Origin: Candidatus Eiseniibacteriota bacterium
GTDB lineage: Bacteria > Arandabacterota > Arandabacteria > Arandabacterales > Arandabacteraceae
Assembly (NCBI GenBank): GCA_043810925.1
Contig: JBDRNT010000017.1
Location: 1-21,996 of the forward strand
Direction: 5' to 3'
DNA length: 21,996 nucleotides
Shown here: positions 2,235-7,792 of the stretch, piece by piece
How the letters are laid out: every line of letters begins with the position of its first letter
Numbering within the stretch: the first letter of the stretch is position 1
Translations under genes and position numbers: made by a program
The notes under the pieces: generated by a model
The model's input: only the letters and a program-made list of their open reading frames with translations
Database searches by the model: none
Told to the model about the DNA's origin: nothing

Positions 2235-3260
2235 ATGAGACCGATCCACTTCCTCGTGGTCGCTCTTACGGTCGGCCTGCTGGCAGGGTGTGAGATGCTC
2301 AGGCCTGACAGCAGCTACATCGACCAGACACCCGATCTTGGTGAATACGGGGGCTACACACTTAACGATGAGGCCCCCGGATTCGGAGATCTCGATCTGG
2401 TTTCAGGTTATCCGGATGACCAGCCGTTTGATGATGATATGGAAGATCATCCGGAAGTCAGGAACACCACGAGAAACGAACGCGCGAAGCACTACTCTTT
2501 GAGGATCGTCTGGGGAAATCTCGGGAGACGGGATAGCACCGTGAGCGTGGGCGAGGATTGCCCGGTCACAGACTGGTCGGGCTCGCTGACGGTGGATGGC
2601 GGAGTGGTGACCGTAAGACGGCTCATCCGGTTCGACCACGGTGACTATATCGTGAGACCGCGACCCGGCCCGCGAGAGGTTCAGTGGGTATCTTACACAC
2701 AACCGCATCTCGGCGGCATTGTCTTCCACATCAGACACATACCCAGGGCCACGACTGCAGACACAGAGGCCGCAGTTACAATCAGAACTCCCCTGTACAC
2801 CGCGAGGATACCGCTTGAGGACCTTGAAGACTACAGGGAGTTTGTGATCTACAATGACTGTAACAAGGTCTCCGTCGTTGCCACCGAGACTACGCCTTCC
2901 CATTGTCCCCGAGGCTTCCTGGAAGGAGAATGGATCGCAGAGACAGACACCTCGGGTCACTTCAAAGGCGTTTGGATCGGCGATAAGGGCGGACTCACTG
3001 GCCATGTACGAGGAAAGTTCACGATTCGAGACGGCCGCAGGGTTCTTTTCGGCAAACTGATAGGCAGATCCGGCGCCTTCGAGGCCTTACTCAGAGGAAC
3101 CTGGACTCCACTTCGCGTCGAGACCGGCCCTGACGGCTACTTCGAAGGCCGCTGGGTCAATGAAGATCTCGATGTGAAGGGTTTCTTCAGAAGCCACTAC
3201 TGCTTATGCGAGGATGGTCAGGGGTTTTTCCATGGACGGTGGGTAGAAGCCTGCCGGTGA
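2235..3260 (+). CDS. Uncharacterised lipoprotein (341 aa) with C-terminal Gly/aromatic beta-strand repeats
   Basis: SD GGAGGTGA; signal peptide II with lipobox LLAG-C19; acidic linker; repeated G-x-[FL]-x-G-x-W-like motifs at the C-terminus. Confidence 0.85.
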   Translation: MRPIHFLVVALTVGLLAGCEMLRPDSSYIDQTPDLGEYGGYTLNDEAPGFGDLDLVSGYPDDQPFDDDMEDHPEVRNTTRNERAKHYSLRIVWGNLGRRDSTVSVGEDCPVTDWSGSLTVDGGVVTVRRLIRFDHGDYIVRPRPGPREVQWVSYTQPHLGGIVFHIRHIPRATTADTEAAVTIRTPLYTARIPLEDLEDYREFVIYNDCNKVSVVATETTPSHCPRGFLEGEWIAETDTSGHFKGVWIGDKGGLTGHVRGKFTIRDGRRVLFGKLIGRSGAFEALLRGTWTPLRVETGPDGYFEGRWVNEDLDVKGFFRSHYCLCEDGQGFFHGRWVEACR

Positions 3261-3520: not shown

Positions 3521-4834
3521 CTACAGGGGTGGATAACACGGGGCGAGGAGTTCGACGACGTGCATTACCTTCTGGGGGAGCCCGCTTCGCGTCAGCACAT
3601 CCTCGAGCTGCATGATACAGCTCGGGCATGATGTCGCAACAATGTCCGCGGCTGTCGCCGCGACGTAACTCGCTTTCCTTCTGCCGATCTCCTTTGAGAT
3701 ATCAGGATGAGTAAAACTGAACATACCGCTGCCGCCACAGCAGCGATCCGCTTCCTCCATCTCGATCAGATTAACATACGGGATCATCTGAAGCAGTTTG
3801 CGCGGTGCATCGGTTATCTCCTGACCCCGGCTAAGGTGACACGGATCGTGATAGGTGACATTCACTGTGCTGTGGCGTTCGTTATCGCACCTGGTCGTGA
3901 CATGTTCCGCAAGGAACTCACAGATGTCATAGATCCTGACTCCAAACGGGTTCTTCTTGAAACCGAGGATCTTCTCGTAATCACTCTTCAGTGCCACCCC
4001 GCCTGATGCACACGCTATCACAATCCCATCCAGCGTATAGGGCTCGAACGCTTTTATATTGTTAAGAGCAAGCTCCCTCGCAGTATGCCGGTCACCAGCG
4101 GTGTAAACCGGCACACCGCAGCAGCCCTGGTTTTTGGGGAGCACCACCTCTATCCCCTCACCACCAAGTATCCTCAGGACGGCCTTTCCCACATTGGTGT
4201 AAATCAGGTTGGTCGCGCACCCCACGAAGAAACCTACACGCATTCGCGGCTTGCCCTTGGGACTTACGATCTCACCGTATTCATCCATCAGTGTGCGTTC
4301 GGCAAAGATCGGTAGGACCCTGTTCCTGTCGACCTTGACCATGGGCAGGAGTATGCGATACGGGCTTGATTGCGGAAGGCATCGGAGTATCTTTCTTTCA
4401 ACAAATGCCAGTGCCTTACTCACGGGCGGAAGGAGTTTACCCCTCTTGAGCAGGTGCCTGAACACGAGTTTCTTGAGTAACGGGAACCGTCCCCGATTGA
4501 ATATCTCCGCCCTCGCTGCAAGTATAAGCTCGTCAACCTTGATTCCGCTGGGACACGCCTCCATACACGACTTGCAGTTCAGGCACTTCGACAACCGATC
4601 GCTGAAGGTGCGGCTGAGCTGAAGATCACCCGCAACGAGTGCTTCAACCAGCGCAATCTTGCCCCGCGCACACCCTGACTCATCCACAACCTCCGCAAAC
4701 ACCGGGCAGACCGAACGGCAGAGACCGCACTTGAGACATCTCTCTATTTCGGGGGCTACGGTTTCGACCGTGTTGTACCTGGCCCCATCAGCCGTTGTTC
4801 CAAAGAGATCTAACTGGCTGGAATCAGTTGTCAT
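3521..4834 (-). CDS. glcF: GlcF-like Fe-S oxidoreductase (two [4Fe-4S] motifs plus two CCG domains)
   Basis: CLKCGLCRSVCP and CLNCKSCMEACP ferredoxin motifs; GCCG, YHDPCHL, RCCGGSG and TSCPSCIMQL CCG-domain motifs; overlaps the upstream glcD-like gene by 11 nt. Substrate not established. Confidence 0.85.
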   Translation of the reverse strand: MTTDSSQLDLFGTTADGARYNTVETVAPEIERCLKCGLCRSVCPVFAEVVDESGCARGKIALVEALVAGDLQLSRTFSDRLSKCLNCKSCMEACPSGIKVDELILAARAEIFNRGRFPLLKKLVFRHLLKRGKLLPPVSKALAFVERKILRCLPQSSPYRILLPMVKVDRNRVLPIFAERTLMDEYGEIVSPKGKPRMRVGFFVGCATNLIYTNVGKAVLRILGGEGIEVVLPKNQGCCGVPVYTAGDRHTARELALNNIKAFEPYTLDGIVIACASGGVALKSDYEKILGFKKNPFGVRIYDICEFLAEHVTTRCDNERHSTVNVTYHDPCHLSRGQEITDAPRKLLQMIPYVNLIEMEEADRCCGGSGMFSFTHPDISKEIGRRKASYVAATAADIVATSCPSCIMQLEDVLTRSGLPQKVMHVVELLAPCYPPL

Positions 4835-6200
4835 AGAACATCTTCCCCGGATTCATGATGCTACCGGGATCGAGCGAACCCTTCAGTCTCTTCATAATCT
4901 CATAGCCGGCTTCCCCGACCTCCAACTTGAGAAACGGCATCTTGTCCACACCGATGCCATGCTCACCCGAGATCGTCCCCCCAAGATCTATTGAGGCGCC
5001 CATCATCTCGGCTATGGCTGCCTCCACCCGCTTAAGCTCACCCGGGTCCCTGCGGTCTGTAAGAAAAGTCGGGTGGATATTGCCATCACCAGCATGACCG
5101 AAGACTGCAACCCCAACGTCGTACTTGTCGGCAATCCTCGCTATCTTGTTGACCATGTCGGGCAGCATGCTCCGCGGCACCGTCACGTCCTCAAGGATCA
5201 CGCTCGTACAGAGGCGCGTCAGTGCGGGCAGCGCGGCACGCCTCGCTTCCCACAGTTTTGCGCTCTTCTTGCCCTTCACGTCATCCTCGATAGCGCCACC
5301 TTGCCGGGCATTGAGTATTTCTATAGCCCTGGATGCTTCTTCTTCACACAGGGATTTCGCGCCGTCGAACTCCGCCAGGAGCAGAACTCCGTCACCAAGG
5401 CTCTCCTTGAGAAATGCTCCCACGGCCTCCACCGTCTTGTGGTCCATTATCTCAAGAATCGAGGGAACGAGACCGTTCGCTGTGATCTCGGCCACGGCTT
5501 CTGCGGCGCTTGTGATATCTTCAAACCTTCCAGCAATCATCCGTCTTGCCCGCGGAAGGGGTAGCAGCCTCAGGACGGCCGAGGTCACGATACCGAGCGT
5601 CCCTTCCGATCCGACCATCAGCCGGGTCACGTCATAACCTGCCACGCTCTTAACCGTCCTGGCACCAGTCCTCAGCAGTTTTCCCTCCGGGGTTACGATT
5701 TCCAGACCGAGCACATAGTTCTTGGTTGTCCCGTACTTAAGCCCCCTGAGGCCCCCTGCGCATTCCCCGATATTTCCCCCGATCGTACACGCCGCTTGAC
5801 TTGCCGGGTCCGGCGGGTAGAAGAGTCTCTTGGCTTCAACGTCACGCCGGAAATGCTCAGTCACGACGCCGGCTTCAACAATTGCGTAGAGGTCTTCCTT
5901 ATGGATGACGGCCGGCGAGTTCATTCTCTCCATGGAAACAACGATCCCGCCCTGGATCGGAACCGATCCACCCGATAGGCCTGTTCCGGCGCCTCGTGGT
6001 GTAACCGGTATCGTCTCCTCATAGGCAAGTGTAACAACTCCGGCAACCTCTTCGGATGATCTTGGCTTGACCACCGCGTGGGGCAATGACGTATAGCGCG
6101 TGGCATCGAAAGAGTAGCAAACAAGCGATTCCTGCTCTGTAAGGACATTCTCGGGGCCGACAATGCCCTTGAGGATTTCAACTACTCCGGGATCGATCAT
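4824..6200 (-). CDS. glcD: GlcD-like FAD-binding 2-hydroxyacid (glycolate/D-lactate) oxidoreductase subunit
   Basis: PRGAGTGLSGG FAD loop, YPPDPAS, TIGGN, KYGTT, GSEGTLG, GHAGDGNIH, SGEHGIG, NPGK; SD GGGGAG. Confidence 0.88.
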   Translation of the reverse strand: MIDPGVVEILKGIVGPENVLTEQESLVCYSFDATRYTSLPHAVVKPRSSEEVAGVVTLAYEETIPVTPRGAGTGLSGGSVPIQGGIVVSMERMNSPAVIHKEDLYAIVEAGVVTEHFRRDVEAKRLFYPPDPASQAACTIGGNIGECAGGLRGLKYGTTKNYVLGLEIVTPEGKLLRTGARTVKSVAGYDVTRLMVGSEGTLGIVTSAVLRLLPLPRARRMIAGRFEDITSAAEAVAEITANGLVPSILEIMDHKTVEAVGAFLKESLGDGVLLLAEFDGAKSLCEEEASRAIEILNARQGGAIEDDVKGKKSAKLWEARRAALPALTRLCTSVILEDVTVPRSMLPDMVNKIARIADKYDVGVAVFGHAGDGNIHPTFLTDRRDPGELKRVEAAIAEMMGASIDLGGTISGEHGIGVDKMPFLKLEVGEAGYEIMKRLKGSLDPGSIMNPGKMFYDN

Positions 6201-6228
6201 CAGGCACTCCCCTAAACCGCGACCATAG

Positions 6229-6260
6229 AAAAACGCAGCCTGGTTAAAACCTCAGGCTGC
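6229..6260 (-). terminator. Intrinsic terminator at the end of the ribosomal operon
   Basis: Minus strand GCAGCCTG-aggttttaac-CAGGCTGC (8-bp stem) followed by GTTTTTCT, 30 nt after the rplQ stop. Confidence 0.75.
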
Positions 6261-6264
6261 CGAA

Positions 6265-6285
6265 TTACATGATGGGTTCCTCCTT
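6265..6285 (-). promoter_or_regulatory. Shine-Dalgarno plus ATG-TAA start-stop minigene
   Basis: Minus strand AAGGAGG (6285-6279), 8-nt spacer, ATGTAA (6270-6265), 4 nt before the terminator stem. The sequence is directly visible; function is inferred. Confidence 0.5.
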
Positions 6286-6289
6286 GTGC

Positions 6290-6751
6290 CTATTTCCCCT
6301 CCATCGCTTTGTCCTTTTCCTCGGATTTTTTCTTGGCTTCCTTCTTGGCGTCTTTCTTTGCCTTCCGCGCGGCCTTCTCGTCCTCGACTTCCTTACCCTT
6401 CTCGGTCAGCTCGAGGATAACCATGGAGGCTGCATCGCCCCGCCGCTGACCGAGCTTGATGATCCGCGTGTAGCCGCCGTCTCTGCCCTGGAGCCTGGGG
6501 GCAATCGTGTCAAACACCTTCTTTACCACGGCCGCGCTGGGTACATGACGAAGCGCAAGTCTTCTTGAGTGGAGATCGCCCTTCTTTCCCCATGTGAGGA
6601 TCTTCTCCGCCAGCTTTCTCGCCTCTTTCGCCCGCGCTTCGGTCGTCCTTATGCTCTCATTTTCGAACAGCGACGCTACCATATTACGAAGCATGAGCTC
6701 CCGGTGGCTCTTTGTACGCCCAAGCTTCCTGCCCTTCTGTCTGTGACGCAT
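6290..6751 (-). CDS. rplQ: 50S ribosomal protein bL17 with K/E-rich C-terminal tail
   Basis: [12 protein letters not shown]...[17 protein letters not shown]; follows rpoA. Confidence 0.98.
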
Positions 6752-6775
6752 CTTGAATCCTTCCCTCGAAATAGC

Positions 6776-7792
6776 CTAACTGTATTGCGCTTTGAGTTTC
6801 GCTGCGGCGTCCGCTTTTCTCTCATCCAGGTAGTAGTCGACTTCCAGTCCGAAGTGGAGGCCCATGCTCGTCAGGATGTCTGATATCTCCTTGAGCGACT
6901 TCCGTCCGAAATTCCTGAACTTCAGCATGTCCGATTCCGTCTTTTTCACCAGATCGGCGATTGTCTTTATGTTCGCGTTCCTCAGACAATTGCTCGAGCG
7001 CACGGAGAGCTCCAGCTCGTCGACGCTCCTCTCGAGAAGATCGTGTATCCTTATCCACTCATCATCGATCTCTTCGACCTCTTCCTGGGCCGGTTCCTCC
7101 TCCTTCGTTATGAAGAGTTGGAGATGGCTCTTGATAATGCTGGCCGCATAGCTGACAGCATCCTGCGGTGAAACGCTACCGTCGGTGAAGACCTCAATTA
7201 CTAACTTGTCATAGTCTGTACGCTGGCCTACTCGCGTGTTCTCGACACGGAAGTTCATACGCTTCACCGGAGAGAAATTCGAGTCCAGTGGAACCACACC
7301 GATAGGCTTGTCGCCCTCGCTCTGTGATTCGGAAAGGACAAAACCGCGGCCCGAGTCCACAGTTATCTCGACTCTCAGCTTGCCTCCCTTATCAAGAGTG
7401 GCAATCTGAACATCCGGATTGAGGATCTCGACTCCGGGTTCCCCAGTGAAACCTTCCGCAGTCACAGCCCCCGCCCCCTCGGCTTCAAGGGTCATGGTTC
7501 TGGGCTCATCAGCCTCAAATGCGAATATCAGTTTCTTGAGGTTAATGATGATCTCAGCAACATCTTCCCGAATATAGGGCAGTGTGGAGAACTCGTGCAG
7601 GGCGCCGTCTATCTTGACGCTCGTGATCGCCGCACCCTGGATCGATGAAAGCATGATCCGTCTCAGGGCATTCCCGAGCGTAGTTCCAAAACCTCGCTCA
7701 AGAGGCTCAACGATAAAGTACCCGTATGTATCCGTGGCAGATGCAGAATCGACTTCAACTGTCTTTGGCATCTGTAAGCTCTTGAATTTCAT
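6776..7792 (-). CDS. rpoA: RNA polymerase alpha subunit
   Basis: EPLERGFGTTLGNALRR, RVGQRTDYDKL, LELSVRSSNCL, NFGRKSL. Confidence 0.98.
   Translation of the reverse strand: MKFKSLQMPKTVEVDSASATDTYGYFIVEPLERGFGTTLGNALRRIMLSSIQGAAITSVKIDGALHEFSTLPYIREDVAEIIINLKKLIFAFEADEPRTMTLEAEGAGAVTAEGFTGEPGVEILNPDVQIATLDKGGKLRVEITVDSGRGFVLSESQSEGDKPIGVVPLDSNFSPVKRMNFRVENTRVGQRTDYDKLVIEVFTDGSVSPQDAVSYAASIIKSHLQLFITKEEEPAQEEVEEIDDEWIRIHDLLERSVDELELSVRSSNCLRNANIKTIADLVKKTESDMLKFRNFGRKSLKEISDILTSMGLHFGLEVDYYLDERKADAAAKLKAQYS

Follow-up and report, generated by a model that had tools for sequence, protein, structure and literature searches.

A conserved candidate ribosome-binding site at the foot of the terminator downstream of rplQ in an order of Eisenbacteria

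In leader-peptide attenuation of the trp type, a short translated frame lies next to an intrinsic terminator, and the position of the ribosome decides whether transcription terminates. In attenuation of the pyrBI type, the leader frame runs through the attenuator itself. A ribosome on a start codon protects the mRNA to about position +15.

Several described systems place a ribosome on RNA without a protein product or place it close to a terminator. In the Ribo-RET study of Meydan et al., toeprints and in vivo data showed ribosome binding at start-stop sites of E. coli, which also drove reporters (10.1101/520783), and such sites are reported to occur in Campylobacter jejuni as well (PMC11955535). 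Because a start-stop permits no product, any role that it has must be regulatory. Li et al. (2015, PMC4824070), whose paper also mentions pyrBI, reported that in E. coli a ribosome represses a terminator nearly completely if a stop codon lies a few base pairs before the terminator, and that termination becomes more efficient with distance. In eukaryotes, 5'-UTR start-stop elements are described as elongation-free elements that hold the ribosome (10.1101/2021.07.26.453809, PMC13338717). The region downstream of rplQ also has a described element of its own. Specifically, the L17 downstream element (Rfam RF01708) was presented by Weinberg et al. (2010, PMC2864571) as a conserved structured RNA with GNRA loops in the rplQ 3' UTR of Lactobacillales and Listeria, and L17 feedback was proposed for the Lactobacillales element. 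Start-stops, ribosome-mediated attenuation, and repression of stop-codon-proximal terminators are all known kinds of system, and the suggestion in the initial annotation of the locus studied here that it was a candidate for an undescribed mechanism was too strong, as bacterial start-stops and terminator repression by a ribosome at a nearby stop had already been described. A full-text search of mainly non-subscription literature found no published case of a dedicated SD-start(-stop) element that gates an intrinsic or operon-internal terminator, and the supplementary tables of the start-stop papers may list intergenic cases.

The window analyzed here is a 21,996-nucleotide stretch of DNA from a Candidatus Eiseniibacteriota genome (designated G000). 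On its minus strand, rplQ was the last gene of an S10-spc-alpha ribosomal-protein cluster, with rpoA and rpsD upstream, and the junction that followed read, in order, rplQ TAG, 4 nt, AAGGAGG, 8 nt, ATG TAA, 4 nt, an 8-bp hairpin, and GUUUUU. The features of the junction and of the genes on either side, which were read from the sequence unless other evidence is named, were as follows:

6290..6751, minus strand: rplQ (ribosomal protein L17), an open reading frame matching Pfam PF01196 (E 2.6e-37)
6292-6290, minus strand: rplQ stop codon, TAG
6289-6286, minus strand: 4-nt spacer, gcac, between the rplQ stop and the Shine-Dalgarno (SD) sequence
6279..6285, minus strand: SD sequence AAGGAGG, 4 nt past the rplQ stop, a complement of the 16S tail
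6278-6271, minus strand: 8-nt spacer from the SD to the ATG
6265..6270, minus strand: one-codon frame ATG TAA (start-stop), with the ATG at 6270-6268 and the TAA at 6267-6265
6264-6261, minus strand: ttcg spacer from the TAA to the stem
6235..6260, minus strand: terminator hairpin (sequence and folding), 8-bp stem GCAGCCTG/CAGGCTGC with a 10-nt loop
6260-6253 and 6242-6235, minus strand: 5' arm GCAGCCTG and 3' arm CAGGCTGC of the stem
6229..6234, minus strand: U-tract of the intrinsic terminator, a G and then UUUUU (GTTTTT)
6207..6212, minus strand: SD-like GGGGAG, located 6 nt 5' of the ATG of the GlcD-like gene
4824..6200, minus strand: gene for a GlcD-family FAD-linked 2-hydroxyacid oxidase/dehydrogenase (Pfam PF01565 and PF02913)
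3521..4834, minus strand: gene for an iron-sulfur CCG-domain partner, GlcF/LdhH/GlpC-like (Pfam CCG and Fer4 families)

This anatomy agreed with the initial annotation in the SD, the N8 spacing, the ATG TAA, the ttcg, the stem, and the GTTTTT, as well as in the start of the stem at +11 of the ATG and in the identity of rplQ, which its Pfam L17 match confirmed. The SD, which had been called near-ideal, turned out to be perfect: in the 16S gene located in the same assembly, the 3' tail carried the canonical CCUCCUU, to which AAGGAGG is complementary over all 7 nt. The start codon of the minigene was 19 nt past the rplQ stop, and the rplQ stop was 29 nt before the stem. Counted from the ATG, the 5' arm of the hairpin occupied +11 to +18; the minigene stop codon ended 4 nt 5' of the stem. 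With its SD, its start codon, and its immediate stop (AAGGAGG-N8-ATG-TAA), the site was a start-stop by sequence, located between rplQ and the GlcD-like gene and not inside a gene and out of frame. Its geometry resembled that of the genuine cistron junctions of the operon (stop, SD, 7 to 9 nt, start). Operon genes used GGAGG-Nk-ATG motifs, whose counts in the genome had a modest peak at k = 6. Despite the likeness to a cistron junction, the following cistron was absent after the start-stop in this genome.

Among DNA contigs of four sequencing runs, one (X2, record 9) spanned 6257-6407 with two differences, both inside rplQ, and another (X1, record 3), from a relative, spanned 6224-6294 with 10 differences, two of them at 6262 and 6263 in the ttcg spacer. 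A look for RNA records over window positions 5600-7000 found none. On the plus strand, a 99-codon antisense frame at 6269-6568, opposite the lysine-rich rplQ tail, was judged spurious. A 341-codon frame at window positions 2235-3260 (plus strand) was convergent with the glcF-like gene and had no Pfam or NCBIfam match.

The two genes downstream of the hairpin had been called glcD and, together, glcDF. They encode a GlcD-family FAD oxidase and a CCG/4Fe-4S partner protein, but the exact names were not supported: the GlcD-like gene scored 461 bits against TIGR00387 (glcD; cut-off, 568), and all NCBIfam matches of the iron-sulfur partner fell below their cut-offs. Because both genes scored below the NCBIfam equivalog cut-offs, we refer to them as GlcD/GlcF-like, and glcD and glcF are used below in this sense. 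The iron-sulfur partner gene overlapped the end of the GlcD-like gene.

In this genome, the SD-ATG-stop motif alone was not beyond chance. The motif GGAGG-N5-10-ATG-stop occurred 21 times on both strands of the 3.85-Mb genome (about 31 expected), and its AAGGAGG form occurred twice (about 1.5 expected), the expected counts being arithmetic from the genome base composition. Only 1 of the 21 matches, the rplQ site, was outside reading frames of at least 190 codons, and several of the others were ATGTGA sites at true GTG gene starts. Similarly, an SD-like motif with a start codon no more than 12 nt from the stem was found at 17 of 388 hairpin-plus-T sites, compared with 12.9 ± 3.6 in shuffles. 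As 30 of 200 shuffles reached 17, there was no enrichment in the genome. With a strict SD, 9 of the same 388 sites qualified, compared with 5.0 ± 2.4 in shuffles. No genome-wide family of SD-start-hairpin elements was found in G000. Since the motif was at chance frequency and had no family in the genome, the case for function rests on the conservation of the locus in relatives.

Two look-alikes were seen in the same genome. On the reverse strand of contig C127, at about 1500-1580, a gene stop was followed by GGGAG-N6-ATG abutting a strong terminator hairpin, a layout that matched that of the g9 relatives. The other look-alike was on contig C69 before ndk (L129:816-945), where a 3-codon mini-frame preceded a hairpin. 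We rejected this mini-frame because it was not kept in the ndk leaders of 11 relatives (L131-L138, L140, L142, L144). The ndk (nucleoside-diphosphate kinase) leader itself was conserved across the order, with a promoter-like TTGC..N17..TGTTATA followed by a hairpin, GGGTYCC..GGRACCC, and a U-tract, the hairpin being 10 to 20 nt before the ndk SD and start. With this layout, the leader is a candidate for attenuating the transcription of a gene in NTP metabolism.

The comparison with relatives covered 18 species of the phylum, one genome each: 16 belonged to this order and represented 9 genera, and 2 belonged to a sister family. All were metagenome bins of one small phylum and, as kin, were not independent. 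Twelve of the 16 order members, from 8 of the 9 genera, carried the element in their rplQ 3' flanks. In each of the 12, the rplQ stop was followed by 0 to 7 nt, GGAG, 8 to 10 nt, an ATG, GTG, or TTG, and the same hairpin, which began at +4 to +11 of that start codon. The GGAG core and the lower stem were invariant in all 12 genomes, and the spacer columns between them varied. The start codon was never CTG, and it was TTG, a weak start, in five genomes.

The element was missing or decayed elsewhere in the order. In genus g3 (three genomes), a plain 19-bp terminator (-34 kcal/mol) stood directly past the rplQ stop, and in G011 the element had decayed to GGGGGA with a disrupted hairpin. The stretch of about 270 nt between rplQ and glcD in G011 (L006:1990-2260, plus strand) carried repeated GTTGCC(G/A)C(A/G)GGAGTGGCAA-like units and is possibly an insertion. 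The element was absent from both sister-family genomes, and a screen of 89 non-redundant rplQ 3' flanks from other bacteria found no case of the arrangement stop-N0-7-GGAG-N8-10-start. A metagenome scan with the L17 alignment yielded 80 loci, one of which (L031) was from this order and repeated the G014 form. On an L17+RpoA tree, element-bearing genomes fell into each of the three deep clades of the order, a distribution that calls for one gain and two losses.

Spacer shuffles placed a start codon at the observed spacing with a probability of 0.04 to 0.28. The product over four conservatively independent lineages was 7e-4, a value that overstates the case because the 8-to-10-nt window was picked post hoc and the genomes are kin, and that is to be read as an upper bound on significance. 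The version in G001, a member of the same genus, was weaker (AAGGAGA and GTG). Between G000 and G001, 2 of 25 positions differed from the SD to the ttcg, whereas 11 of 37 differed in the loop plus the downstream spacer, a marginal contrast (Fisher p 0.057). At rplQ third positions, the count was 32 of 153. As read from the flanks and the spacer shuffles, the conservation of the site at this locus in relatives is beyond chance.

The reading frame opened by the start codon differed from genome to genome, as follows:

G000 (this genome): ATG TAA
G001 (same genus): GTG TAA
G005: GTG TGA
G004: TTG TAG
G010: GTG ACA TAG, 2 codons, overlapping the stem
G013 and G014: 13 codons each
G008: 15 codons, ending just past the U-tract
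G015: 27 codons, with its end 4 nt beyond the glcD ATG
G006: 30 codons, its stop overlapping the glcD start (GTGA)
G002: 63 codons, crossing the hairpin
G007: TTG start, no stop, in frame with glcD

Thus, the frame was a start-stop in four genomes, had 2 codons in one, and had 13 to 63 codons or was fused to glcD in seven. The start-stop form was found in 4 of the 16 genomes of the order and had at least two origins on the tree. In G007 (L007:2008-2250, plus strand), the GlcD protein may be longer at its N terminus by 21 residues, for which the codons would run across the terminator hairpin. Among the relatives, the hairpin was crossed in all three frames. Because the length of the frame, and the frame in which the hairpin was crossed, varied freely, the peptide is not the selected feature. 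Because the reading frame was not conserved, the conserved unit would be a ribosome-binding site located at the hairpin 5' arm and not the start-stop, which, as these genomes read, is one of several interchangeable ways to end the frame. The comparison gave good support to the view that the site is a conserved ribosome-binding site placed so that a ribosome on the start codon would cover the 5' arm of the hairpin.

These results changed the initial proposal in part. The idea that a ribosome competes with a terminator arm gained comparative support (12 of 16 genomes in the order, and none of the 89 unrelated flanks), but the start-stop, with 4 of 16, was not the conserved unit. Likewise, the search of rplQ 3' regions that had been suggested recovered an SD and start codon near a hairpin in 12 of 16 genomes, but the ATG-stop form was not general. 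Absence from relatives, or a full gene beginning at the ATG, had been named as findings that would count against the proposal, and both were encountered to a limited extent: three genomes of one genus lacked the element, and the G007 frame continued into glcD.

The hairpin itself had the form of an intrinsic terminator, a G+C-rich hairpin directly before a U-tract, with its 8-bp stem and a G followed by UUUUU. Its folding energy was -14.5 kcal/mol. The 12 orthologous hairpins ranged from -13.1 to -23.4 kcal/mol and had 5 to 8 U within the first 9 nt past the stem. A consensus structure from the alignment of relatives had nine pairs, three of which, in the upper stem, showed compensatory changes on both sides. 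The lower stem, GCAGC/GCUGC, was invariant and without covariation, and its lower 5 to 6 pairs never varied. A simple consensus terminator scan did not list the hairpin because the scan permits loops of 3 to 8 nt only.

Other structures were considered for the intergenic region. A long helix closing the whole region was predicted for this window (z -2.1), but it was not kept in 10 relatives, and structure comparison with these 10 relatives found no conserved alternative (antiterminator) helix. Pairing of the SD with the U-tract, which was predicted in some relatives, spanned an internal loop of 12 to 18 nt and did not need the GGAG. We judged it to be a folding artifact of purine-rich versus U-rich sequence. 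A dispersed palindromic repeat was also rejected, as GCAGCC..GGCTGC had 8 matches compared with about 7 expected. An Rfam cmscan with E values up to 10 found no family, and only mir-492 and P26 were listed, far below the gathering score. P26, a Pseudomonas sRNA, was the best match (window 6227-6272, minus strand; 13.4 bits, E 2.6, gathering score 36), and this resemblance most likely reflects a chance likeness between terminator hairpins.

The position of the GlcD-like gene bears on whether the hairpin has to be passed. This gene was next to rplQ in 16 of 18 loci, and in the other two the contigs ended too early. The order rplQ, GlcD-like gene, iron-sulfur partner (window 3521-6751, minus strand; loci L001-L020) was kept in 16 of the 18 phylum genomes, an unusual association of a ribosomal-protein operon with a 2-hydroxyacid dehydrogenase pair. 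The GlcD-like ATG (6200) was 28 nt beyond the U-tract in this genome, and the glcD start was 18 to 21 nt past the stem in G005 and G010. A sigma-70 scan found no promoter-like site at 5800-6900, in a phylum whose promoter grammar is known from a single conserved leader. A possible internal promoter overlapping the hairpin, TTAACC-N14-TATGGT, was rejected because it had the wrong spacing and, by eye, was kept in G001 only. The short gap between the U-tract and glcD, which leaves no room for a separate promoter, the lack of a promoter-like site, and the location of glcD after rplQ together suggested that glcD transcripts would have to pass the hairpin, which would then be leaky or gated.

Our preferred reading, which we hold tentatively and at a little less than an even chance, is that a bound ribosome blocks the hairpin and allows read-through into the glcD/glcF-like genes. 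A partial intrinsic terminator would separate the ribosomal-protein operon from the glcD/glcF-like pair, with the ribosome-binding site directly before the terminator. A ribosome finishing rplQ would sit over the SD, and a 30S or 70S ribosome could then be held on the ATG, supplied either by the rplQ stop 19 nt upstream or by fresh binding to the RNA. Since the layout of the junction matches that of true cistron junctions in the operon, re-initiation or fresh 30S binding is plausible. With TAA in its A site, the ribosome would not elongate and would wait for release and recycling; it could not move on because the TAA follows the ATG at once. A footprint from about +1 to +15 would cover +11 to +15 of the 8-nt 5' arm, that is, most of +11 to +18. 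If a ribosome were present as RNA polymerase reached the U-tract, the hairpin would be blocked and transcription would continue into glcD/glcF; if it were absent, the transcript would end after rplQ. How often a ribosome occupies the site would then determine what fraction of transcription reads through. In the relatives with frames of 2 to 63 codons, the same effect could be reached by translation up to or through the hairpin.

From the arrangement of the site, we infer that ribosomes bind, that the hairpin terminates transcription, and that binding lessens termination. The geometry expected of an attenuator was there in the sequences, with the stem at +11 in this genome and at +4 to +11 in all 12 genomes. 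No regulatory codons or stalling signal were present in the frame, which has one codon only and content that is not conserved. Points against the preferred reading include the chance-level motif, the losses in g3 and G011, the weaker version in G001, and the TTG starts in 5 of 12 genomes. In addition, a hairpin that had already folded would stand in the way of 30S binding, which makes the effect dependent on co-transcriptional timing. A fuller version is that the site is an elongation-free attenuator, in which a one-codon frame with a perfect SD senses free or closely coupled ribosomes and sets read-through into the metabolic genes during the second or so of hairpin transcription, and that an order of Eisenbacteria has kept this terminator under ribosome gating while the frame length drifted freely. 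We regard this fuller version as speculative and doubtful.

Four other explanations were weighed against this reading. The site could be a leftover or a tolerated by-product, in which an old cistron junction lost its gene and a stop after the start codon neutralizes spurious initiation, with no regulatory role. The chance-level frequency of the motif in the genome, the look of the site, which was identical to that of ordinary junctions, and the weaker version in G001 all fit such an origin, as does the loss of the element in g3 and G011, after which G003, G009, and G011 still had glcD downstream (the G012 contig ended 91 nt past rplQ, where the presence of glcD cannot be judged). Meydan et al. 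propose neutralization of this kind for some E. coli start-stops (10.1101/520783). It is harder to reconcile with a relic that GGAG was invariant and the start was at a fixed spacing in all three deep clades, while neighboring spacer columns had diverged, or that the arrangement was confined to this group when unrelated rplQ flanks were screened (0 of 89). Nor did any relative have a separate full gene starting at the site, the 63-codon frame of G002 having been judged spurious by eye. On balance, we consider a relic somewhat unlikely. The ribosome-binding site could also be functional but act on translation or on the fate of the RNA instead of on termination, either by melting the hairpin and handing ribosomes to glcD (translational coupling) or by shielding the 3' part of the rplQ mRNA against nucleases. 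A translational role fits equally well with the frames that extend to glcD (by a GTGA overlap in G006, 4 nt past the ATG in G015, and in frame in G007), the glcD SDs of the relatives were mostly weak, and the junction was built like the coupling junctions of the operon. However, where the frame is a start-stop or has 2 codons (five genomes, this one among them), the ribosome must halt before the hairpin and cannot reach glcD, which here has its own GGGGAG SD, and the frames in G008, G013, and G014 end 14 to 40 nt short of glcD. As for shielding, terminator hairpins by themselves protect RNA 3' ends. We judged an action on translation or RNA fate to be unlikely.

Two further explanations remained. 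If the site were a protein-bound structured 3'-UTR element, for example in L17 feedback, then GGAG and the lower stem would be a recognition sequence and not a ribosome-binding site. This would suit the invariance of GCAGC/GCUGC without covariation, the finding that the lower-stem motif is not a dispersed repeat, and the precedent of a conserved element after rplQ (PMC2864571). It is very improbable given that neither RF01708 nor any other Rfam family matched, that no conserved structure included the GGAG (the long closing helix of this window was not kept in relatives), and that GGAG 8 to 10 nt before a start codon is most simply an SD. That a small peptide is encoded at the site and was pseudogenized in this genome would agree with the 13-to-15-codon frames of G013, G014, and G008, which have similar ends, but these ends are similar because the hairpin nucleotides are shared. 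With G006 and G007 reading the hairpin in the other two frames and with frame lengths of 1 to 63 codons, we give the peptide almost no credence.

If gating of the terminator by a bound ribosome is true, then the site would be the simplest attenuator conceivable, with no sensing codons, alternative helices, or protein factor, in which a ribosome and a hairpin merely compete over some 8 nt of RNA. Bacterial start-stop sites, whose purpose has so far been uncertain, would gain a concrete job, and there would be an example of a highly expressed ribosomal operon supplying promoterless genes at a set ratio. If the site is not functional, then it serves as a useful caution, because a perfect SD-ATG-stop arises by chance about once or twice per genome.

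Like leader-peptide attenuators, the rplQ site would pair a short frame with an intrinsic terminator, and the hairpin-crossing frames of the relatives resemble the pyrBI layout; unlike those attenuators, it follows the last gene of an operon, has one codon in this genome, and is without regulatory codons or a conserved antiterminator helix. With RF01708 it shares a conserved element 3' of rplQ, but it differs in that cmscan gave no match of the site to that family. Eukaryotic start-stops, as described in the papers cited above, act on the scanning 40S subunit and on downstream translation, not on transcription termination. The E. coli start-stops and the rplQ site are alike in their SD-like sequence, start codon, and immediate stop; the E. 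coli sites are described as located inside genes, out of frame, and as slightly modulating host-gene translation (10.1101/520783), whereas the rplQ site is intergenic, is at the foot of a terminator, and is a candidate for ribosome binding. In the terminator repression described by Li et al. (PMC4824070), a ribosome a few nucleotides before a hairpin blocks its folding, the same physical principle that would apply here. Their terminators belonged to an engineered series behind a long upstream gene, whereas the rplQ site is natural and conserved and has a separate one-codon frame with its own SD. This minigene shifts the last possible ribosome position before the stem from 29 nt, at the rplQ stop, to 4 nt.
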